This document shows positions 8,266-33,057 of a stretch of DNA of 33,057 nucleotides, piece after piece (positions within the stretch are counted from its first letter, which is position 1; each line of letters begins with the position of its first letter). This stretch comes from a virus. Taxonomy: Duplodnaviria; Heunggongvirae; Uroviricota; Caudoviricetes. The stretch covers positions 1 through 33,057 of the IMG/VR virus record IMGVR_UViG_2713896897_000015; one strand, given 5' to 3'. A program made the position numbers and the translations under genes. The notes beneath the pieces were generated by a model. It saw only the letters and a list, made by a program, of their open reading frames with translations, did no database searches and was not told the origin of the DNA.

Positions 8266-9150
8266 ATGAAATTTTATACTCCATTAAGATACCCCGGCGG
8301 GAAAGGTAAGTTATCTTACTTTTTAAAAGATGTTATTGAAAAAAACTCGTTGAATGATGGAGCATATGCAGAACCTTACGCTGGTGGTGCAGGGGTGGCT
8401 TTAGAATTATTATTGGAAGAGTATGTCCGTAAAATCTATATAAATGATGCAGATTTTGCTGTTTATTCTTTTTGGTCATCTGTTGTTAGTGATACTGATG
8501 AGCTTTGCCGACTTATTAGCCGAGCAAAGATAGATATGGATGAATGGTCTTTTCATCGCTATGTTATTTCGAATCCTTCTGAGTTTACTAAGCTTGAGGT
8601 TGGCTTTGCTGCGTTTTTCTTAAATAGAACAAATCGTTCAGGTATTCTCAAGGCGGGGGTTATAGGTGGGAAATCACAAAATGGAAAATGGAAAATGGAT
8701 GTTCGCTTTAACAGGGCGGATTTAATTTCAAGAATTGAGAAGATAGCAAATTATAATCAAAGAATAGTAGTAACTAATCTGGATGCTTTGGATTTTCTTG
8801 ATGCCTTGAATTTTATGGATAATATGGGAAAGGTGGATAAAAATAAAATTCTTTTGTATTTGGATCCTCCTTACTATATTAAAGGGCAAGGGCTTTACAG
8901 GAATTTTTATGAGCATGATGATCATGTATTGGTTATGAAGAAACTCACAGAAATTAATTTCCCAAATTGGCTTGTTTCTTATGATAATGCTAAGGAAATT
9001 AAAGATATTTATAATGAATTTCCGCAAGTTGAGTATTCATTGCAATATACAGCGCATCTCAAAAAATCTGGAGAGGAAGTGATGATTTTTTCTCCTGAAA
9101 TAATTATTCCTAATACCCTGAAAGGGGTCTCAATGCCAACTTGCGCCTGA
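8266..9150 (+). CDS. Dam-family (D12 class) N6-adenine DNA methyltransferase; cargo gene 2
   Basis: 294-aa ORF with RYPGGKGKL (compare Dam KWAGGK), EPYAGGAGV (compare Dam EPFVGAGSV) and DPPY catalytic motif (LYLDPPYY). AGGGA RBS upstream; 69-bp gap after the ParB-like gene suggests an operon. AT-rich. Confidence 0.9.
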   Translation: MKFYTPLRYPGGKGKLSYFLKDVIEKNSLNDGAYAEPYAGGAGVALELLLEEYVRKIYINDADFAVYSFWSSVVSDTDELCRLISRAKIDMDEWSFHRYVISNPSEFTKLEVGFAAFFLNRTNRSGILKAGVIGGKSQNGKWKMDVRFNRADLISRIEKIANYNQRIVVTNLDALDFLDALNFMDNMGKVDKNKILLYLDPPYYIKGQGLYRNFYEHDDHVLVMKKLTEINFPNWLVSYDNAKEIKDIYNEFPQVEYSLQYTAHLKKSGEEVMIFSPEIIIPNTLKGVSMPTCA

Positions 9151-9297
9151 TTTTACTTATTTTTTGTCAGTAAGTAATTAGTTTGGTGCATTTATTTGCA
9201 TTCATTTTTAAATGCCAGTTCTGGTATCTGACATCAGTGCTGGCGCATTCTGACCATTACTGCTGCACTGCATTTAAAGCCCTGCATGAAGCGGGCG

Positions 9298-9316
9298 GGC
9301 GAGGCGGGGAAAGCAC
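9298..9316. other. cos site (19-nt cohesive-end sequence)
   Basis: GGCGAGGCGGGGAAAGCAC matches the P2 cohesive-end sequence as I recall it, and lies where expected between the A-side cargo and Q. Confidence 0.6.
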
Positions 9317-9458
9317 TGCGCGCTGGCGGTGGTGCTGATTTTATTTTTTCAGCGTCTGAGCGCGTCGTGATGGCGTTTAGATTGTTCGCCGGGGCGTTGG
9401 TTTGTCTGCGGGCTGTTTTGTGCGGTGGTGAGCGTGTGAGGGCGTGATGGCGGGTTGT

Positions 9459-9480
9459 AAAAAAGCCGCCCGCAGGCGGC
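9459..9480 (-). terminator. Rho-independent terminator downstream of Q (minus strand)
   Basis: Minus-strand RNA reads GCCGCC-UGCG-GGCGGC followed by UUUUUU, starting 6 nt after the Q stop. Confidence 0.55.
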
Positions 9481-9485
9481 GATGT

Positions 9486-10520
9486 TCAGCCGTTGTCAGT
9501 GTCCAGTGAGTAGTTTTTAAATCGGATGACCTCCTGACCGAGCCAGCCGTTTATCTCGCGGATCCTGTCCTGTAACGGGATAAGCTCATTGCGGACAAAG
9601 ACCTTTGCCACTTTCTCAATATCACCCAGCGACCCGACGTTCTCCGGCTTGCCCCCCATCAACTGAAAGGGGATGCGGTGCGCGTCCAGCAGGTCAGCGG
9701 CGCTGGCTTTTTTGATATTAAAAAAATCGTCCTTCGTTGCCACTTCACTGAGCGGGATAATTTTAATGCCGTCGGCTTTCCCCTGCGGGGCATAGAGAAA
9801 CAGATTTTTAAAGTTATTGCGGCCTTTTGACTTAACCATGTTTTCGCGAAGCATTTCGATATCGTTGCGGTCCTGCACGGCATCGGTGACGTACATGATG
9901 TATCCGGCATGAGCGCCGTTTTCGTAATACTTGCGGCGGAACAGCGTGGCCGACTCATTCAGCCAGGCAGAGTTAAGGGCGCTGAGATATTCCGGCAGGC
10001 CGTACAGCTCCTGATTAATATCAGGCTCCAGCAGATGAAACACGGAGCCGGGCGCGAAAGGTGTCGGCTCGTTGAAGGACGGCACCCACCAGTAAACATC
10101 CTCCTCCACGCCACGACGGGTATATTTTGCCGGTGAGGTTTCCAGTCTGATGACCTTACCGGTGGTGCTGTAACGCTTTTCCAGAAACGCATTACCGAAC
10201 ACCAGAAAATCCAGCACAAAACGGCTGAAATCCTGCTGGGAAAGCCACGGGTGCGGGATAAACGTTGAAGCCAGAATATTACGTTTGACGTAAATCGGTG
10301 AGCTGTGATGCACGGCAGCACGCAGGCTTTTTGCCAGACCGGTAAAGCTGACCGGCGGCTCATACCATCTGCCGTTACTGATGCACTCGACGTAATCCAG
10401 AATGTCACGGCGGTCGAGTACCGGCACCGGCTCACCAAAGGTGAATGCCTCCATTTTCGGGGCGCTGGCGGTCATTGTTTTTGCCGCAGGTTGCGGTGTT
10501 TTCCCTTTTTTCTTGCTCAT
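9486..10520 (-). CDS. Q: Portal protein
   Basis: 344-aa ORF, first gene after cos and transcribed leftward together with P as in P2; start codon overlaps the P stop. Confidence 0.95.
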   Translation of the reverse strand: MSKKKGKTPQPAAKTMTASAPKMEAFTFGEPVPVLDRRDILDYVECISNGRWYEPPVSFTGLAKSLRAAVHHSSPIYVKRNILASTFIPHPWLSQQDFSRFVLDFLVFGNAFLEKRYSTTGKVIRLETSPAKYTRRGVEEDVYWWVPSFNEPTPFAPGSVFHLLEPDINQELYGLPEYLSALNSAWLNESATLFRRKYYENGAHAGYIMYVTDAVQDRNDIEMLRENMVKSKGRNNFKNLFLYAPQGKADGIKIIPLSEVATKDDFFNIKKASAADLLDAHRIPFQLMGGKPENVGSLGDIEKVAKVFVRNELIPLQDRIREINGWLGQEVIRFKNYSLDTDNG

Positions 10521-12292
10521 CAGTAAAACTCCAGAATGGTGGATGTCAGCGGGGTGCTGATACCGGCGGTGAGTGGCTCATTTAACAGGGCGTGCATGGT
10601 CGCCCAGGCGAGGTCGGCGTGGCTGGCTTCCTCGCTGCGGCTGGCCTCATAGGTGGCGCTGCGTCCGCTGCTGGTCATGGTCTTGCGGATAGCCATAAAC
10701 GAGCTGGTGATGTCGGTGGCGCTGACGTCATATTCCAGACAGCCACGGCGGATGACGTCTTTTGCCTTGAGCACCATTGCGGTTTTCATTTCCGGCGTGT
10801 AGCGGATGTCGCGCGCGGCGGGATAGAACGAGCGCACGAGCTGGAACACGCCGACACCGAGGCCGGTGGCATCAATACCGATGTATTCGACGTTGTATTT
10901 TTCGGTGAGTTTGCGGATGGATTCAGCCTGGGTGGCAAAGTCCATGCCTTTCCACTGGTGACGCTCAAGTATTCTGAATTTGCCACCGGCCACCGCCGGC
11001 GGTGCCAGCACCACGCATCCGGCACTGTCGCCACGGTGTGACGGGTCGTAACCAATCCATACCGGGCGGGAGCCGAACGGATTGGCGGCAAACGGCGCAT
11101 AGTCTTCCCATTCTTCCAGCGTGTCGACCATGCAGCGTTGCAGCTCCTCGAACGGGAACACCGACGCCTTGTCGTCAACAAATTCACACATGAACAGGTT
11201 TTTAAAATCGTCGGCGCTGTTTTCACGTTTGAGCTGCTCAATGTCGAACAGTGTGCAGCCGCCTTTCAGGGCGTCCTCAATGGTGACAATCTGCCGCCAC
11301 TGGCCGTCCGCACAGAGAAGACCACCGGCAAGGGCGTTATGACTGACGTCGATTTCCACACGTTCGGCGGCGCTGGCGCGTCCCCGGTTGAACAGTTCAC
11401 CTGACCAGAACGGGTAGGCGTCGTGCGCCAGCGTGGACGGGGTGGAGAAATAGGTCGAGCGCAGGTGACTCTGTGAGGCCATACCTGATGCCACCTTACG
11501 CAGTACCTGAAAATTCGGGATCCAGAAAATCTCATCGACGTACAGGTCGCCGTTATGGCTCTGTGCGGTGTTGGAGTTGGTGCCGAGAAAAATCAGTTTT
11601 GCACAGTTATTGCCCAGGACAATCGGGTCACCGGTCAGGTCAACGTCAACCAGCCGGGCAAAGGCAATGATGTATTCGCGGAACACATACGCCTGCGTTT
11701 TACTGGCCGACAGAAAAATCTGGTTATGACCGGTTTTCAGGGCGCGCAGCAGCGCCTCGCGGGAAAAATAAAACGTCGCGCCAATCTGGCGGGATTTCAG
11801 GATATCGCGGATGCGGTGCTCAAGCCCGGCGCGATACCAGTGCAACTGATATTCGAAAGACTGCTCAAAGAAAATCTGCTCCAGCTTTTCGATGGCTTCG
11901 TCGCTGAAAAAATTCTTTTTCGGTTTGCGCCGCCCGCCTTTGTTGCGGTTAGCGACGTTCGGATTAAGGTCTGCCTCGTTGCCGGTCTGACTGTAGCGGT
12001 TGACCCGTGCCAGTCGTTCAATCTGGCGTCCCAGCAGGTCAATTTCCTTGAAGTCACCGCCGGTTTTCTGCGGTTTGATGATGAGCTGGGTCAGCCGCGC
12101 TTCCAGACTCATTTCGACACGGCTGATGGGGGCAACGCTGTCCCAGCCGTCGCGCTGTTTCCAGCTCTGCACCGTCGGGCGTTTCATCTGCAACATGGCG
12201 GCAATCTGCGGCACGGAAAATCCCTGCCAGTACAGCAGCGCCGCCTGACGACGCGGGTCGTGTAAAAGAGTGGTGTCTGTGGTGATGGTCAT
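10520..12292 (-). CDS. P: Terminase large (ATPase) subunit
   Basis: ORF-track entry extends to a TTG at 12322. The ATG at 12292 gives 590 aa beginning MTITTDTTLLHDPRRQ, the P2 P length. Confidence 0.95.
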   Translation of the reverse strand: MTITTDTTLLHDPRRQAALLYWQGFSVPQIAAMLQMKRPTVQSWKQRDGWDSVAPISRVEMSLEARLTQLIIKPQKTGGDFKEIDLLGRQIERLARVNRYSQTGNEADLNPNVANRNKGGRRKPKKNFFSDEAIEKLEQIFFEQSFEYQLHWYRAGLEHRIRDILKSRQIGATFYFSREALLRALKTGHNQIFLSASKTQAYVFREYIIAFARLVDVDLTGDPIVLGNNCAKLIFLGTNSNTAQSHNGDLYVDEIFWIPNFQVLRKVASGMASQSHLRSTYFSTPSTLAHDAYPFWSGELFNRGRASAAERVEIDVSHNALAGGLLCADGQWRQIVTIEDALKGGCTLFDIEQLKRENSADDFKNLFMCEFVDDKASVFPFEELQRCMVDTLEEWEDYAPFAANPFGSRPVWIGYDPSHRGDSAGCVVLAPPAVAGGKFRILERHQWKGMDFATQAESIRKLTEKYNVEYIGIDATGLGVGVFQLVRSFYPAARDIRYTPEMKTAMVLKAKDVIRRGCLEYDVSATDITSSFMAIRKTMTSSGRSATYEASRSEEASHADLAWATMHALLNEPLTAGISTPLTSTILEFY

Positions 12293-12465
12293 GAATACCT
12301 CGCCGTGATGAATACACGGCAAGGCTACTGAGTCGCGCCCCGCGATTCGCTAAGGTGCTGTTGTGTCAGTGATAAGCCATCCGGGACTGATGGCGGAGGA
12401 TGCGCATCGTCGGGAAACTGATGCCGACATGTGACTCCTCTAATCACTATTCAGGACTCCTGACA

Positions 12466-20625: not shown

Positions 20626-21229
20626 TTCGCGACTGCTGCCGACTGGCTCATCACCGCTTGAAGTTGCCGCCGCAAAAGCCTGTGCGGAAATTGAAAAAAC
20701 GCCGGTCAGTATTCGTGAGCTGTGGAACCCGGATACCTGCCCGGCAAATCTGCTGCCGTGGCTGGCGTGGTCATTTTCGGTTGACCGCTGGGATGATAAG
20801 TGGCCGGAAGCGACAAAACGCGCTGTTATCCGCGATGCGTATTTCATTCACTGCCATAAGGGCACTATAGGCGCAATCCGGCGTGTGGTGGAGCCGCTCG
20901 GCTATCTGATTGAGGTGAGGGAGTGGTGGCAACTCAATGAGGAGCCGGGGACGTTCCGCATCGTTGTTGGCGTGCTTGAGCAGGGTATTACCGAGGAAAT
21001 GTATCAGGAGCTGGAGCGCCTCGTTGCTGATGCAAAACCGGCGAGCCGCCATCTGACGGGACTGGCTATCAGTTTAAGTACAACCGGCAACATTTTTGCC
21101 GGTGCGGGATGCTATCACGGCGACGCCCTGACGGTTTATCCCTACACCCCGGAGGCCATTATTGTCGGAGGGGATTATTTCCCGGCCTCGGCCATTCATT
21201 TAATTGATAACCTGAGAGTAAACGCATGA
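20618..21229 (+). CDS. I: Baseplate protein I
   Basis: 203-aa ORF overlapping the J stop; N-terminus MSDSRLLPTGSSPLEVAAAKA as in P2 I, with a longer C-terminus. Confidence 0.88.
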   Translation: MSDSRLLPTGSSPLEVAAAKACAEIEKTPVSIRELWNPDTCPANLLPWLAWSFSVDRWDDKWPEATKRAVIRDAYFIHCHKGTIGAIRRVVEPLGYLIEVREWWQLNEEPGTFRIVVGVLEQGITEEMYQELERLVADAKPASRHLTGLAISLSTTGNIFAGAGCYHGDALTVYPYTPEAIIVGGDYFPASAIHLIDNLRVNA

Positions 21230-22725
21230 CAGTGAAATACTACGCCATTCTGACTAATCAGGGCGCAGCACGGCTGGCTAACGCGACGATGCTCGGCAGT
21301 AAGCTGAATCTGACGCAAATGGCCGTTGGTGATGCGAATGGTGTCTTGCCGACACCAGACCCGGCACAGACAAAACTGATTAACCAGAAACGCATCGCGC
21401 CGCTGAATCTTCTGAGTGTTGACCCGAACAACCAGAGCCAGATTATTGCGGAGCAAATCATCCCTGAGAACGAGGGCGGATTCTGGATCCGTGAGATTGG
21501 GCTTTATGATGATGAAGGCGTACTCATTGCGGTGGCAAACTGCCCGGAAACGTACAAACCGCAGTTGCAGGAAGGAAGCGGTCGTACCCAGACTATCCGC
21601 ATGATTCTGGTTGTCTCGAATACCGAAGCCATCACGCTGAAAATCGACCCGTCGGTGGTACTGGCGACCCGTAAATACGTGGATGATGAAGTCCTGGAAT
21701 TAAGGCTGTATGTGGATGACCAGATGAGAAACCACATTGCCGCACAGGATCCTCATACCCAGTATGCACAGAAACATAATCCGACATTTACCGGAGAACC
21801 AAAAGCGCCGACGCCTGCCGCAGGAAATAACACCACGCGGATTGCGACTACTGCGTTTGTTCAGGCCGCTATTACCGCTCTGATTAACGGTGCGCCAGCC
21901 ACGCTGGACACACTGAAAGAAATTGCCGCAGCCATTAACAATGACCCGAAATTCAGCACCACCATTAACAATGAGCTGGCACTGAAAGCGCCGCTGTCGA
22001 GTCCCGCACTTACCGGAACGCCAACAGCACCTACTGCGGCACAGTCGGTCAACAATACACAGATTGCCACCACGGCTTTTGTGAAATCAGCAATTGCGGC
22101 AATGGTGGGTTCTGCCCCTGCGGCACTGGATACACTGAATGAACTGGCGGCGGCGCTGGGGAATGACCCTAACTTTTCAACAACAGTGCTTAATGCACTG
22201 GCAGGCAAACAACCGCTGGACAATACGCTTACTAATTTGAGTGGAAAGGATGTTGCTGGTCTTCTCGCATACCTTGGTTTGGGAGAAGGCTCTGCATTAC
22301 CGGTTGGGGTGCCTGTTCCGTGGCCTTCAGCTACGCCGCCAACAGGCTGGCTGAAATGCAATGGCGCTGCCTTTGATAAGGTTAAATATCCCCGTCTTGC
22401 TACAGCATATCCATCAGGGAAACTACCTGATCTCCGCGGTGAGTTTATTCGTGGCTGGGATGACGGGCGCGGTATTGATACAGGGCGTGCTTTATTGAGT
22501 ATTCAGAGTGATGAAGTCAGAAAGCTCGCATTAAAATACTGGGGACCAGCTTCAAACAGTTCACCATCAAAAACATTTGCACTCAGCGACAGTGCCGGTG
22601 GCGGGTTGTACACGGATGGAATAAGTCAGGCAAGTGGTGGGATTATCAACGCTTTTCAGCTCCCTGGCGGTAACGAAACCCGCCCACGAAATGTTGCATT
22701 TAACTATATCGTGAGGGCTGCATAA
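21226..22725 (+). CDS. H: Tail fibre protein H (constant N-terminal part fused to the currently expressed variable C-terminal domain)
   Basis: 499-aa ORF with internal about 75-aa tandem repeats (IATTAFV...LDTLKEIAAA...NDPKFSTT) and a tail-collar-type C-terminus (PVGVPVPWP...GWLKCNG...YPRL...LPDLRGEFIRG). It is shorter than P2 H (669 aa). The inversion crossover site lies inside it at 22262-22287. Confidence 0.9.
   Translation: MTVKYYAILTNQGAARLANATMLGSKLNLTQMAVGDANGVLPTPDPAQTKLINQKRIAPLNLLSVDPNNQSQIIAEQIIPENEGGFWIREIGLYDDEGVLIAVANCPETYKPQLQEGSGRTQTIRMILVVSNTEAITLKIDPSVVLATRKYVDDEVLELRLYVDDQMRNHIAAQDPHTQYAQKHNPTFTGEPKAPTPAAGNNTTRIATTAFVQAAITALINGAPATLDTLKEIAAAINNDPKFSTTINNELALKAPLSSPALTGTPTAPTAAQSVNNTQIATTAFVKSAIAAMVGSAPAALDTLNELAAALGNDPNFSTTVLNALAGKQPLDNTLTNLSGKDVAGLLAYLGLGEGSALPVGVPVPWPSATPPTGWLKCNGAAFDKVKYPRLATAYPSGKLPDLRGEFIRGWDDGRGIDTGRALLSIQSDEVRKLALKYWGPASNSSPSKTFALSDSAGGGLYTDGISQASGGIINAFQLPGGNETRPRNVAFNYIVRAA
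21826..22240 (+). repeat. Intragenic tandem repeat (about 225-nt period, two copies) within H
   Basis: Protein repeats NTTRIATTAFVQAAITALINGAPATLDTLKEIAAAINNDPKFSTTINNELALKAP and NNTQIATTAFVKSAIAAMVGSAPAALDTLNELAAALGNDPNFSTTVLNALAGKQP. Coordinates are approximate. Confidence 0.6.
22262..22287. repeat. Invertase crossover site (gix/hix-like), left, inside H
   Basis: TTCTCGCATACCTTGGTTTGGGAGAA is an inverted copy of the site at 24086-24111 (21 of 26 identical, 14 contiguous). It has the TTC..AAACC/GGTTT..GAA architecture of Gin/Hin/Pin/Cin recombination sites. Confidence 0.7.
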
Positions 22726-23327
22726 TGGATAATGCTGTATTAAATAGCGAGTTTATTGCCACGAAGGCGGGGAATATTACCGTCTATAACTATGATAGTG
22801 AAACACGGGAATATATTTCCACATCAACTGAATATCTTGCTGTCGGCGTCGGTATCCCTGCATGTTCTTGTTTAGATGCTCCTGGCTCACATAAAGCTGG
22901 TTATGCAATTTGCCGTTCTGCAGATTTTAACTCATGGGAATATGTGCCAGACCATCGCGGTGAAATCGTCTATAGCACCGAAACAGGAGAATCAAAAGAA
23001 ATCACAGCTCCGGGTGATTACCCTGAAAAGACAACCACTATCGCCACGTTAACGCCATACGATAAATGGGATGGTGAGAAATGGGTGACGGATACCGAGG
23101 CACAGCATAGCGCCGCAGTAGACGCGGCAGAAGCACAACGTCAGTCACTGATTGATACTGCAATGGCTTCCATCAGTCTGATTCAACTGAAATTGCAGGC
23201 CGGACGTAAACTAACGCAGGCAGAAACAACCCGGCTTAACGCTGTGCTGGATTACATTGACGCGGTGACGGCAACAGATACCGGCACCGCGCCGGATGTC
23301 ATCTGGCCTGAACTGCCGGAGGCGTAG
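22725..23327 (+). CDS. G: Tail fibre assembly chaperone (G; Mu U-like)
   Basis: 200-aa ORF directly after H (TAATG overlap). The C-terminal motif (...LIDTAMASISLIQ...LNAVLDYIDAV...APDVIWPELP) is shared with the convergent minus-strand paralog. Confidence 0.85.
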   Translation: MDNAVLNSEFIATKAGNITVYNYDSETREYISTSTEYLAVGVGIPACSCLDAPGSHKAGYAICRSADFNSWEYVPDHRGEIVYSTETGESKEITAPGDYPEKTTTIATLTPYDKWDGEKWVTDTEAQHSAAVDAAEAQRQSLIDTAMASISLIQLKLQAGRKLTQAETTRLNAVLDYIDAVTATDTGTAPDVIWPELPEA

Positions 23328-23742
23328 GCCATTCATTATCTGGCGCACCGGAAGTATCGACCAGTTCCAGTGCGTCCAGGTAATCCAGCCACAAATTATA
23401 TTGCGCCAGTTCGTCACCTTTCAGACGACCAATAGCTGCTTTGCCAGGCCATTGCTTACTGTTCATATATTCGTTGGCATTATCAATAAGATTTTGCTTT
23501 TGAGCTGTGGCAAGGAGTATTGCTTCTTCAGGAGCCATTGGTGGAATATCAACCCACTCAGGTTGTCCATCATCATTTGCACCGCGCGCTTTCCCTTCAG
23601 GTGGTGTTCCTGAATAAGTCAAAAATATTTCATCAGATACTGGTGTAATATCATCCGGTAAGCTGTCATATGAGCGATATAGCTCCAGCATATCTACCGG
23701 ATAAAAAGCTAACGTCGTCCGTGAAAAATAATAATTACTCAT
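23299..23742 (-). CDS. Alternative tail fibre assembly chaperone (G'), used in the inverted orientation
   Basis: 147-aa minus-strand ORF with a Tfa-type C-terminus (NLIDNANEYMNSKQW...LWLDYLDALELVDTSGAPDNEWP). It converges on G and overlaps its 3' end by 29 nt. Confidence 0.8.
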   Translation of the reverse strand: MSNYYFSRTTLAFYPVDMLELYRSYDSLPDDITPVSDEIFLTYSGTPPEGKARGANDDGQPEWVDIPPMAPEEAILLATAQKQNLIDNANEYMNSKQWPGKAAIGRLKGDELAQYNLWLDYLDALELVDTSGAPDNEWPTPPAVQAR

Positions 23743-23743
23743 A

Positions 23744-24085
23744 TCAGCACCCTATTGCAAACCAGCGAAAATTATAATTGCCACCAGAAGCATCACAGCG
23801 TAGAAGAAATCCTGTCCTGGTCATATTCCCTGCTGCCCCGGCAACAATTTTTCCGCCACCATTATCGTAGGACGTCACCACCTGAAAACATTGCGACGGA
23901 AAAGCGATTGGGAAATTCATCTCATTGCCTGTCGAGCCTACATAACCCGTACCTGCGTCTCCTGCCCCCCATTGGATAATCAATCCTCCCGGTAACTTCT
24001 GATATCCCTTGCTGGCAATGCTGCCAGAAAAAGAACTCATATCCGGTATCTGACCTGAACCTGTTCCTACATTCCGTTTTGCCGC
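23744..24085 (-). CDS. Promoterless alternative tail-fibre C-terminal cassette (Hv'), fused in-frame to H after inversion
   Basis: The minus-strand frame through the 24086-24111 site encodes ...VGLGE-AAKRNVGTGSGQIPDMSSFSGS...NYNFRWFAIGC-stop, in the same codon register as LGLGE at the left site in H. Its stop is 1 nt before the G' start. Confidence 0.7.
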   Translation of the reverse strand, partial: AAKRNVGTGSGQIPDMSSFSGSIASKGYQKLPGGLIIQWGAGDAGTGYVGSTGNEMNFPIAFPSQCFQVVTSYDNGGGKIVAGAAGNMTRTGFLLRCDASGGNYNFRWFAIGC

Positions 24086-24111
24086 TTCTCCCAAACCAAC
24101 GTTTATGAAAA
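24086..24111. repeat. Invertase crossover site (gix/hix-like), right
   Basis: TTCTCCCAAACCAACGTTTATGAAAA, an inverted partner of 22262-22287, lies about 50 bp upstream of the invertase gene. Confidence 0.7.
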
Positions 24112-24160
24112 TGCAGAGATAACGGGCAACTGGCATCATCTCCGGTTTTTATTCAGGGGG

Positions 24161-24760
24161 ATGCTCATGCTTATTGGCTATGTACGCGTGTCAACAAATG
24201 ACCAGAACACGGAATTGCAGCGTAACGCGCTGGAGTGTGCAGGATGTGAGCTGATTTTTGAGGATAAAATCAGCGGCACGAAGTCCGACCGACCGGGACT
24301 GAAAAAACTGCTCAGAACATTATCAGCAGGTGACACTCTGGTGGTCTGGAAGCTGGACAGGCTGGGGCGTAGTATGCGGCATCTGGTCATTCTGGTTGAG
24401 GAGCTGCGCGAACGCGGCGTTAATTTTCGCAGCCTGACGGATGCTATTGATACCAGCACGCCGATGGGGCGCTTTTTCTTTCATGTGATGGGTGCCCTGG
24501 CTGAAATGGAGCGAGAACTCATTGTCGAGCGGACACGCGCCGGACTGGAAGCGGCCAGAGCCAAAGGTCGTATTGGTGGCAGACGACCGAAACTCACCAC
24601 GAGTGAGTGGGAGCAGGTCGGACGGTTGCTGGCTGCGGGGGAATCTCGTCAACGTGTGGCGCTGATTTTTGATATTGGCCTGTCCACGCTCTATAAAAAA
24701 TTCCCCTCATCAGCGACAAAGAATAAATTGTGTCATCCCTTAGCCAACCGGGACAAATAG
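24161..24760 (+). CDS. Serine DNA invertase (Gin/Hin/Pin/Cin family)
   Basis: 199-aa ORF; N-terminal catalytic domain with the GYVRVSTNDQ serine motif and a C-terminal HTH. AGGGGG RBS upstream; an alternative ATG lies at 24167. Confidence 0.93.
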   Translation: MLMLIGYVRVSTNDQNTELQRNALECAGCELIFEDKISGTKSDRPGLKKLLRTLSAGDTLVVWKLDRLGRSMRHLVILVEELRERGVNFRSLTDAIDTSTPMGRFFFHVMGALAEMERELIVERTRAGLEAARAKGRIGGRRPKLTTSEWEQVGRLLAAGESRQRVALIFDIGLSTLYKKFPSSATKNKLCHPLANRDK

Positions 24761-31695: not shown

Positions 31696-33057
31696 TTACT
31701 TACCGTGCGGATTACGCGTGGTTTCCCCGGAGAAATTACGCATCAACAGCGCGTAATTCAGCTCAAGATCCTGCGGTACTGGGATCCACACAGTATAACC
31801 ATCGCCAGGTGCGACCGGCATTGCTTCACCTTTGGCGTTTTCCATGTGCTCAAGGGTAAAGTTAATGTTGCCTTGTGGCGTCATCAGCTCAAGGCTGTCG
31901 CCAACGGAGAATTTATTTTTCACCGCTACAGCAGCAAAGTTGCCTTTGCGCTCACCGGTAAACTCACCAACAAACTGCTGGCGATCAGAAACCGAATAAC
32001 CGTATTCGTAGTTCTGATAATCGTCGTGAGTATGGCGACGCAGGAATCCTTCGGTGTAACCACGATGCGCCAGACCTTCCAGCGTTTCCAGCAGGCTGGT
32101 ATCGAACGGTTTGCCCGCCGCCGCATCATCAATCGCTTTACGATAAACCTGCGCGGTACGTGCGCAATAGTAGAAAGATTTGGTACGGCCTTCGATTTTC
32201 AGCGAATGCACGCCCATTTTGGTCAGGCGCTCAACGTGGGCGATGGCGCGCAGATCTTTCGAGTTCATGATGTAAGTGCCGTGTTCATCTTCGAACGCGG
32301 TCATATATTCGCCCGGACGCTGGGCTTCTTCGATCATAAACACTTTATCAGTTGGCGCGCCGATCCCCAGCGTCGGTTCAACGTTTTGCACCGGAATCGG
32401 TTCGTACTTGTGTACGATGTTGCCGACGTCATCTTCTTTGCCTTCCTGTACGTTGTACTCCCAGCGGCAGGCGTTAGTGCAGGTGCCCTGGTTCGGGTCG
32501 CGTTTGTTGATATAGCCAGAGAGCAGGCAGCGACCGGAGTAGGCCATGCACAATGCGCCGTGAACGAAGATCTCAAGCTCCATATCCGGCACCTGATTAC
32601 GGATCTCTTCAATCTCTTCCAGCGACAGCTCGCGAGAGAGGATCACGCGGGTCAGGCCCATTTGCTGCCAGAATTTCACCGTTGCCCAGTTCACGGCGTT
32701 AGCCTGTACTGAGAGGTGGATCGGCATTTCAGGGAAGTGCTCACGCACCAGCATAATCAGCCCCGGATCGGACATAATCAGCGCATCCGGCCCCATTTCC
32801 ACCACCGGTTTCAGGTCACGGATAAAAGTTTTCAGCTTGGCGTTGTGCGGTGCAATATTGACCACGACATAAAACTTTTTCCCCAGAGCGTGTGCTTCAT
32901 TGATGCCGAGCTGGAGATTTTCATGGTTGAATTCATTGTTGCGCACGCGCAGGGAGTAACGCGGCTGGCCCGCATAAACAGCATCTGCGCCATAAGCGAA
33001 AGCGTAACGCATATTTTTTAGCGTTCCCGCCGGGGAAAGGAGTTCCGGTTTAAACAT
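31696..33057 (-). CDS. yegQ: U32-family peptidase-like protein YegQ (TrhP, tRNA hydroxylation protein)
   Basis: 453-aa ORF whose N-terminus MFKPELLSPAGTLKNMRYAFAYGADAVYAGQPRYSLRVRNNEF matches E. coli YegQ from memory. The start codon is the last three bases of the window. G+C and codon usage look chromosomal. Confidence 0.92.
   Translation of the reverse strand: MFKPELLSPAGTLKNMRYAFAYGADAVYAGQPRYSLRVRNNEFNHENLQLGINEAHALGKKFYVVVNIAPHNAKLKTFIRDLKPVVEMGPDALIMSDPGLIMLVREHFPEMPIHLSVQANAVNWATVKFWQQMGLTRVILSRELSLEEIEEIRNQVPDMELEIFVHGALCMAYSGRCLLSGYINKRDPNQGTCTNACRWEYNVQEGKEDDVGNIVHKYEPIPVQNVEPTLGIGAPTDKVFMIEEAQRPGEYMTAFEDEHGTYIMNSKDLRAIAHVERLTKMGVHSLKIEGRTKSFYYCARTAQVYRKAIDDAAAGKPFDTSLLETLEGLAHRGYTEGFLRRHTHDDYQNYEYGYSVSDRQQFVGEFTGERKGNFAAVAVKNKFSVGDSLELMTPQGNINFTLEHMENAKGEAMPVAPGDGYTVWIPVPQDLELNYALLMRNFSGETTRNPHGK

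Follow-up and report, generated by a model that had tools for sequence, protein, structure and literature searches.

The stretch of DNA analyzed here (the window; all 33,057 nucleotides of IMG/VR virus record IMGVR_UViG_2713896897_000015, class Caudoviricetes) is, judged from its genes, a complete P2-like prophage. Its subject in this work is a DNA methyltransferase gene (gene B) and the gene directly upstream of it, which encodes a ParB-like protein (gene A). The two genes make up PD-lambda-5, an already known two-gene anti-phage system that was validated in Escherichia coli and is usually carried by P2-like prophages at the same variable site as here; for this reading together with the mechanism proposed below, we would put the probability at roughly 0.75. 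The genes are adjacent and co-oriented, with A before B and a spacer of 69 nt, and their features are as follows:

6691-8196, plus strand: PD-lambda-5 A, ParB/HEPN protein of 501 amino acids (aa), from PADLOC and fold searches
6691-7065, plus strand: predicted ParB/Srx N-domain of A, aa 1-125, with EGNRR at 6919-6933
7066-7545, plus strand: predicted ParB-like helix-turn-helix (HTH)/central domain of A, aa 126-285
7546-7749, plus strand: predicted disordered linker of A, aa 286-353
7750-8193, plus strand: predicted HEPN-fold domain of A, aa 354-501, with QQYVHN at 8095-8112
8266-9150, plus strand: PD-lambda-5 B, D12-class (alpha-type) DNA methyltransferase of 294 aa, from the open reading frame (ORF), Pfam, PADLOC, and motifs
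8287-8304, plus strand: motif X of B, RYPGGK, within RYPGGKGKL at 8287-8313
8371-8397, plus strand: motif I of B, EPYAGGAGV, aa 36-44
8863-8874, plus strand: motif IV of B, DPPY, aa 200-203

The methyltransferase

The ORF of gene B begins with an ATG, which is preceded at a distance of about 5 nt by the Shine-Dalgarno-like sequence GAGAGGGA, and its end coordinate takes in the stop codon. A preliminary description of this DNA, made from its letters, had placed the protein in the D12 class on the strength of the motifs RYPGGKGKL, EPYAGGAGV, and DPPY. All three are present in the ORF, and the class assignment is confirmed by Pfam model PF02086 (MethyltransfD12), which matches residues 9 to 256 across profile positions 1 to 246 of 253 (E = 4.4e-16; 59.8 bits against a cutoff of 22). 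The S-adenosylmethionine-binding motif I and the catalytic motif IV follow the alpha-class order (I, target-recognition region, IV). Both motifs are intact, invariant in 6 orthologs, and aligned with the same motifs in Protein Data Bank (PDB) chain 7M6B. By sequence, then, the window methyltransferase is a D12-class enzyme with intact catalytic motifs.

The further label of "Dam-family" is correct as to the D12 class but not as to Dam in the strict sense. The NCBIfam model dam (TIGR00571) gives B 47.1 bits, below its cutoff of 114.85, and on this score we reject a reading of B as an ortholog from the GATC-specific Dam subfamily. RefSeq names the B protein "DNA adenine methylase" and the A protein "hypothetical protein"; the exact B sequence of the window is recorded on 360 contigs.

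Identity with PD-lambda-5

PADLOC holds a profile for each component of PD-lambda-5, and each matches its window protein over the full length: PD-Lambda-5_A (PDLC03998) matches A across profile positions 1 to 465 of 466 (E = 9e-168), and PD-Lambda-5_B (PDLC04018) matches B across positions 1 to 280 of 291 (E = 7.9e-122), a result that chance could not produce. The system was isolated from Escherichia coli ECOR7, where RCQ13837.1 ("ParB/HEPN") and RCQ13838.1 (methyltransferase) occupy a 2,461-bp interval (Vassallo et al. 2022, Tables S1 and S2). In an exact-sequence look-up, the window B protein fell in the same 90% cluster as RCQ13838.1 (ECOR7; P0003), with which it shares 291 of 294 residues; none of the three substitutions (A180V, E251G, and V288G) lies in a catalytic motif. 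An exact copy of RCQ13838.1 is also present in E. coli strain A7 (from an orangutan), and the identity of A was measured against the gene 5' of this A7 copy. The two A proteins are identical at 497 of 501 positions, all 4 differences being in the disordered linker.

PD-lambda-5 was validated by cloning with its native promoter, including 272 bp of upstream DNA, and of 10 phages tested, only one was unaffected by the cloned system; T-even phages were hit harder than lambda-vir or T7 (Vassallo et al. 2022). The same study records "Escape plaques: No" for the system (Table S1), describes "RM+Abi," and states that cloning required an MG1655 host deleted for "the region containing mrr." The window pair is, by sequence identity, an allele of this published and experimentally validated system; the anti-phage activity itself is a literature result for the 99%-identical ECOR7 allele and is predicted for the window allele by that identity. 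The value of the identification is mainly one of annotation, in that a supposed orphan enzyme and a "hypothetical protein" become a validated defense pair in a canonical P2 hotspot. The mechanism, methylation motif, and modified base of PD-lambda-5 are without publication in the literature searched, which leaves a modest remaining interest. Vassallo et al. (2022) report no single-gene or point-mutant dissection of PD-lambda-5, no later mechanistic paper was found beyond that study and survey papers, and the search found neither a methylome of P2-like prophage methyltransferases nor papers on the RefSeq accession WP_000675355.

Conserved pairing of A and B

Homologs of A with 29 to 75% identity were compared across eight loci, and in every one of them a D12 methyltransferase gene (267 to 325 aa) lies directly 3' on the same strand. 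The two genes are at most about 135 nt apart, and some loci have a gap of 4 nt or an overlap. The contexts of the pair are unrelated to one another: P2 hotspots of Enterobacter and Serratia, a lambdoid prophage of Providencia, an integrase-flanked element of Desulfoluna, a Vibrio island, a metagenome-assembled genome, and a mobilizable element with ArdA. The methyltransferases of these loci group in a coherent clade (44 to 59% identity) in which EPxAGGA and DPPYY are invariant and which shares a distinctive block or insert, FFLNRTNxSGI..G.IGG..Q.G.WK.D.R.N. The pairing in eight of eight loci, taken together with this coherent clade, is a strong argument against an orphan enzyme, which is how the preliminary description had perceived B. 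On this sequence evidence, A and B coevolve as one unit.

Two of the loci merit separate mention. The pair on Logan contig ERR13909476_8997 (L004, positions 1082-7518) is a distant one, with 31% identity in A and overlapping genes, and apparently resides on a mobilizable or conjugative element; its neighbors are an AAA_21/AAA_15 ATPase gene, a Toprim/DUF3991 gene, the anti-restriction gene ardA, and a MobC/NikA relaxosome gene. In locus L007 (3711-4598), the methyltransferase as called is too short, and an in-frame ATG at 3711 restores LRYPGGK. With this upstream start, the A-B spacer of the locus becomes about 50 nt, not 135 nt.

Architecture of the partner protein

The mechanical ORF of gene A starts at 6622, but the PADLOC match begins at residue 24 of that ORF, and we therefore place the start at the ATG at 6691. 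This start agrees with an AGAGGA box 7 nt upstream, with the RefSeq length of 501 aa, and with the N termini of homologs. AlphaFold2, run on an alignment of 35 sequences, gave a model (mean predicted local distance difference test score, 78.9) that is confident at residues 1 to 285 and 355 to 501, with residues 286 to 353 disordered. When the N-terminal half (N-domain and DNA-binding domain) was searched with Foldseek, it matched KorB, ParB, and Noc (E of about 3e-3, with probability up to 1.0). The model predicts a ParB/Srx fold with a conserved G-x-x-R arginine box in the N-domain and a four-helix HEPN fold at the C terminus. HHpred had earlier given ParBc at 96.4% probability for residues 6 to 89 and HEPN at 35.6% (Vassallo et al. 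2022), and the modeled fold places the HEPN assignment on firmer ground than that original value.

At the level of sequence, Pfam gave no match for A (E ≤ 0.1) or for 35 homologs (E ≤ 0.05), ParBc (PF02195) and DUF262 included; NCBIfam scans of A and the homologs likewise returned no meaningful family, and searches of A and its profile against PDB sequences returned low-complexity noise only. No restriction endonuclease fold (PD-(D/E)xK, HNH, GIY-YIG, or PLD) was found in A by Pfam or by fold searches. The preliminary description had noted that no canonical restriction endonuclease is adjacent to the methyltransferase and that the ParB-like protein is its sole partner. Both observations are upheld: the island that carries the pair holds A, B, and a gene scrap (described below), and A is predicted to fold as ParB/Srx plus HEPN.

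The A family is large, comprising 3,091 clusters at 50% identity with E ≤ 1e-3, of which 373 have E ≤ 1e-30. Among 144 family representatives, N18, R20, the [ED]77-G-N-R-R81 box, H136, W148, R197, E383, R402, and H473 are 98 to 100% conserved. R197 sits in the stretch ITNxxRLxGD, which we take to resemble the NxLRLL of the ParB HTH. H473 is 98% conserved, and 4 positions before it, 141 of the 144 representatives have N, H, or Q and none has R; at positions -5 and -6, R is not among the common residues, and the conserved R402 lies on another helix. The arginine of the canonical HEPN motif Rx4-6H is therefore missing across the A family, an observation that is new here. A ParB/KorB-like plus HEPN-fold architecture with a noncanonical HEPN site offers concrete residues for mutation.

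Candidate regulatory repeats

The cassette carries two short, perfect inverted repeats:

6637-6669, no strand: perfect inverted repeat with 14-nt arms, TTTATGATAAAAAT/ATTTTTATCATAAA, just 5' of A
8209-8228, no strand: inverted repeat with 9-nt arms, TCTGGACAT-gg-ATGTCCAGA, in the 69-nt A-B spacer

Both overlap promoter-like sites, which come from promoter and terminator scans that use consensus only, do not exceed shuffle expectation, and serve here as positions only. The first repeat overlaps the site at 6625-6653, is partly conserved in the Enterobacter locus, and falls within the 272-bp upstream segment that Vassallo et al. included in their clone as native promoter; this repeat could be an operator or promoter region. 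The second overlaps the -35 element of the site at 8211-8240. Its core, TGGACA..TGTCCA, is kept in the Enterobacter locus, and the Providencia locus has an unrelated inverted repeat with 16-nt arms at the same position of the A-B spacer. A possible function for this repeat is to adjust methyltransferase expression, either as an operator or as an RNA hairpin. Both repeats are candidate operators or hairpins for setting the A:B expression ratio.

Prophage setting and hotspot

Outside the pair itself, the following features define its setting:

477-1490, minus strand: integrase
4007-6334, plus strand: P2 gpA-type replication endonuclease, the left hotspot anchor (Pfam PF05840 Phage_GPA, E = 2.5e-122)
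6334-6415, plus strand: DUF3850 ("RNA-binding") pseudogene scrap, frameshifted and shortened, directly 3' of gpA (RefSeq annotation of 99%-identical loci, mapped by coordinate offset)
6400-9250, no strand: low-GC cargo island, P2 hotspot #1 (tin/old position), from composition, recurrence, and literature
9299-9317, plus strand: cos-like 19-mer GGCGAGGCGGGGAAAGCAC, about 150 bp 3' of the methyltransferase stop (letters read directly)
9486-10520, minus strand: P2 Q-type portal protein, the right hotspot anchor (Pfam PF04860, E = 5.9e-14)
10520-12322, minus strand: terminase (Pfam Terminase_6N/6C/Terminase_5)
21226-23327: tail-fiber genes
31696-33057, minus strand: host peptidase U32 gene, reaching the last base of the window

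The cargo island spans about 2.9 kb and has a guanine-plus-cytosine (GC) content of 33 to 40%, compared with 53 to 58% in the flanking phage DNA. It contains only A, B, and the DUF3850 scrap, which is probably debris of earlier hotspot cargo, and no other ORF in it has a family match. The description of the methyltransferase as prophage cargo is well founded, given an island at 33 to 36% GC against these flanks and its position between P2 gpA and portal/terminase. The 19-mer at 9299-9317 matches what we take to be the 19-nt cohesive end (cos) of P2. If it is indeed a P2-type cos, its location just past the B stop would place the cassette at the very terminus of the linear DNA that is packaged. 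The U32 peptidase gene at the right end resembles yegQ; in K-12, the cryptic P2 remnant ogrK lies beside yegQ. If the gene is yegQ, its presence would suggest that the prophage sits at a classical P2 attachment locus.

The tin/old hotspot of P2 is a reservoir of anti-phage systems (Rousset 2022; Vassallo 2022); it adjoins cos, and P2 hotspots often house more than one independent system (Rousset 2022). When positions 6300 to 9500 were compared with 5,426 complete E. coli genomes, the flanks matched 2,151 genomes and the full cassette 22, at 98.8 to 99.6% identity. In these 22 genomes, the cassette always lies between genes annotated as "replication endonuclease" and "phage portal protein." The window thus carries variable cargo between gpA and cos/portal, as is characteristic of P2 defense hotspot #1.

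At the nucleotide level, the full-length cassette is absent from the 50,697 deposited phage genomes searched. By tblastn, the full-length relatives in deposited phage genomes are only distant (26 to 28% identity) and belong to Vibrio and Pseudomonas phages, and relatives of A restricted to the N-domain occur in P2, Wphi, L-413C, and other peduoviruses. In Wphi (AY135739.1, 29004-32684; L012), the same P2 hotspot holds three genes, with coordinates given within this interval: gp98 (96-1301), gp96 (1222-2331), and Mth (2328-3266, minus strand). Gp98, of 401 aa, shares only the ParB-like N-domain of A (partial PADLOC matches with E of about 3e-24; PDC-M38A, E = 9e-25), gp96 is a 369-aa protein without a named function, and Mth, a C5 cytosine methylase, is encoded in divergent orientation. 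This trio may be a second defense module composed of a ParB-N protein and a methylase.

The second variable locus of P2 (the Z/fun position) corresponds to window positions 23299-24760 and holds three genes that together form an invertible host-range switch rather than a defense gene:

23299-23742, minus strand: second tail-fiber assembly gene (Caudo_TAP)
23744-24139, minus strand: alternative tail-fiber tip, inverted (Gp53-like_C)
24161-24760, plus strand: serine invertase (Resolvase plus HTH_7)

Proposed mechanism and alternatives

Most likely, B methylates host and prophage DNA as self and so protects it from the A effector. In such a scheme, B would methylate a short non-GATC motif on host and prophage DNA, most likely at N6-adenine, and thereby supply a self mark. 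A would bind DNA through its ParB-like N-domain and HTH, probably as a dimer formed through the HEPN-fold C terminus, and would act only on unmarked DNA, that is, on incoming phage DNA. A would work either by ParB-type NTPase or nuclease chemistry or by way of its HEPN-like domain, and its output could be DNA nicking, NTP-driven clamping or blocking, or RNA cleavage. B would in this way be the modification half, or antidote, of a restriction-like system that has no classical endonuclease, and as a by-product P2 progeny DNA would be methylated too. The preliminary description had offered three functions for the enzyme, namely, anti-restriction self-protection, epigenetic regulation, and the modification half of a noncanonical restriction system. 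The third comes closest and is essentially the published view, while the orphan framing around all three was not borne out.

The requirement for a cloning host deleted for the mrr region implies that B is active in vivo. Moreover, a dam+ K-12 strain tolerates its own GATC methylation, yet PD-lambda-5 conflicts with the mrr region, from which we infer that the pattern laid down by B is other than GATC. For the same reason, the DpnI/MboI sensitivity test that had been proposed for B would probably be uninformative.

Several points weigh against self-marking with an A effector. The literature search found no experiment showing a need for B in defense, toxicity of A in the absence of B, or a block of A by methylation. 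The absence of escape plaques is unlike classical restriction-modification (R-M), where epigenetic escape is frequent, and it is odd for simple site-specific cleavage that lambda and T7 are less affected than T-even phages, which have heavily modified DNA. A has no recognizable classical endonuclease domain, and its HEPN-like domain lacks the canonical arginine. The closest solved sequence relative of B, M.CbeI, is an N4-cytosine enzyme, so that the modified base of B is unproven, and the deleted "region containing mrr" may have included other restriction genes.

A variant that resembles abortive infection (Abi) or BREX would also accommodate the missing escape plaques and the strong T-even effect. 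Under this explanation, which we regard as unlikely, the pair would be a toxin-antitoxin or Abi module in which A is a HEPN-type toxin released or activated on infection and B neutralizes it by contact or by expression control; alternatively, the pair would block replication in the manner of BREX without cleavage. Apart from the missing plaques and the fact that T-even phages are strongly affected even with modified DNA, it is favored by the "RM+Abi" wording of Vassallo et al. and by the ParB/KorB-like N-domain plus HTH architecture of A, which fits a non-cleaving DNA clamp. However, no ortholog departs from the catalytic motifs of B, and the host deleted for the mrr region points to methylation in vivo, a combination indicating that catalysis, and not binding alone, is under selection. 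The absence of the canonical HEPN RNase arginine across the A family likewise argues against a toxin of this type.

A narrower question is which base B modifies. D12/PF02086 enzymes of known chemistry overwhelmingly produce N6-methyladenine (m6A), and Mrr is classically triggered by m6A and 5-methylcytosine (m5C). Both considerations, the second because Vassallo et al. single out mrr, join the RefSeq name in making it quite improbable that the system is the same but B is an N4-cytosine methyltransferase. In favor of the cytosine version are the sub-cutoff dam score and the only PDB chain that is detectable for B by sequence (7M6B, E = 2.3e-12): this chain is M.CbeI, an alpha-class D12-like methyltransferase that carries DPPY and makes N4-methylcytosine. 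N6-adenine is the likely target base of B, short of proof from sequence, and for D12 members the label "adenine methylase" is unsafe by homology alone. Reading the target motif of B from sequence was considered and dropped, there being no close characterized relative and the nearest solved one differing in base specificity.

Finally, it is very improbable that B is a true orphan (a phage anti-restriction device by which P2 methylates itself against host R-M, or an epigenetic regulator) beside a ParB-like gene that is incidental hotspot packing: P2 hotspots do often hold several independent systems, PD-lambda-5 has no reported single-gene dissection, and the promoter-like site in the A-B spacer would permit separate transcription, but the order A then B holds in all eight loci down to 29% identity and across unrelated contexts, in some cases 4 nt apart or overlapping, the B orthologs form a clade of their own with a distinctive insert, and PADLOC treats both genes as one system.

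Returning to the self-marking scheme, we can suggest a more specific, though unlikely, form of it. A might be no classical nuclease but a ParB/KorB-type NTP-gated clamp, a HEPN-fold dimer without the RNase arginine, that loads on unmarked DNA; it might further be one case of a broader group of P2 hotspot modules of the type "ParB-N protein + methyltransferase" (e.g., gp98/gp96 plus Mth of Wphi), whose genes have been annotated as "partitioning." If this were true, PD-lambda-5 would provide restriction-like immunity without a restriction endonuclease, and the broader group would be one that has so far gone unrecognized.

Comparison with known systems

Type II R-M systems with an alpha-class (D12) methyltransferase, such as those of the DpnII and EcoRV type, share with the window pair the combination of an effector and a D12 enzyme, broad protection, and methylation in vivo. 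They differ in that the window partner is predicted to be a ParB/Srx plus HTH plus HEPN-fold protein and not a PD-(D/E)xK, HNH, or GIY-YIG endonuclease, and in that no high-frequency epigenetic escape plaques are reported for PD-lambda-5. With no restriction endonuclease of known fold in A or elsewhere in the island, the pair falls outside classical Type II R-M. The GATC orphans E. coli Dam and T4 Dam (TIGR00571) have in common with B the D12 fold family, the motif order X-I-...-IV, and DPPY; B, on the other hand, scores under the subfamily cutoff, is paired with an effector gene, and probably has a non-GATC pattern.

For A, the relevant comparisons are with ParB-superfamily proteins of modification-dependent defense (the DUF262 proteins SspE and GmrSD, and DndB) and with the CTP-dependent DNA clamps ParB, KorB, and Noc. 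Like these, A has a predicted ParB/Srx N-domain with a [DE]G-x-x-R box (EGNRR in A), followed by a DNA-binding region and a C-terminal effector or dimerization domain. Unlike them, A has no sequence-level match to ParBc or DUF262, and its C terminus is predicted to adopt a HEPN fold in place of an HNH/DUF1524 or ParB dimerization domain. The partner of PD-lambda-5 A, moreover, is a base methyltransferase and not a phosphorothioation system. The combination of ParB, HEPN, and DNA methylase has been cataloged as a recurrent R-M-linked theme (Anantharaman et al.). The window pair shows this combination, with the difference that in the A family N, H, or Q takes the place of the Rx4-6H arginine.

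The closest known system is PD-lambda-5 of ECOR7 itself. The window agrees with it in gene content and order, in protein sizes (501 and 294 aa), and in location (the P2 gpA/portal hotspot); with 99% identity in both proteins, it differs by 3 substitutions in B and 4, all in the linker, in A.

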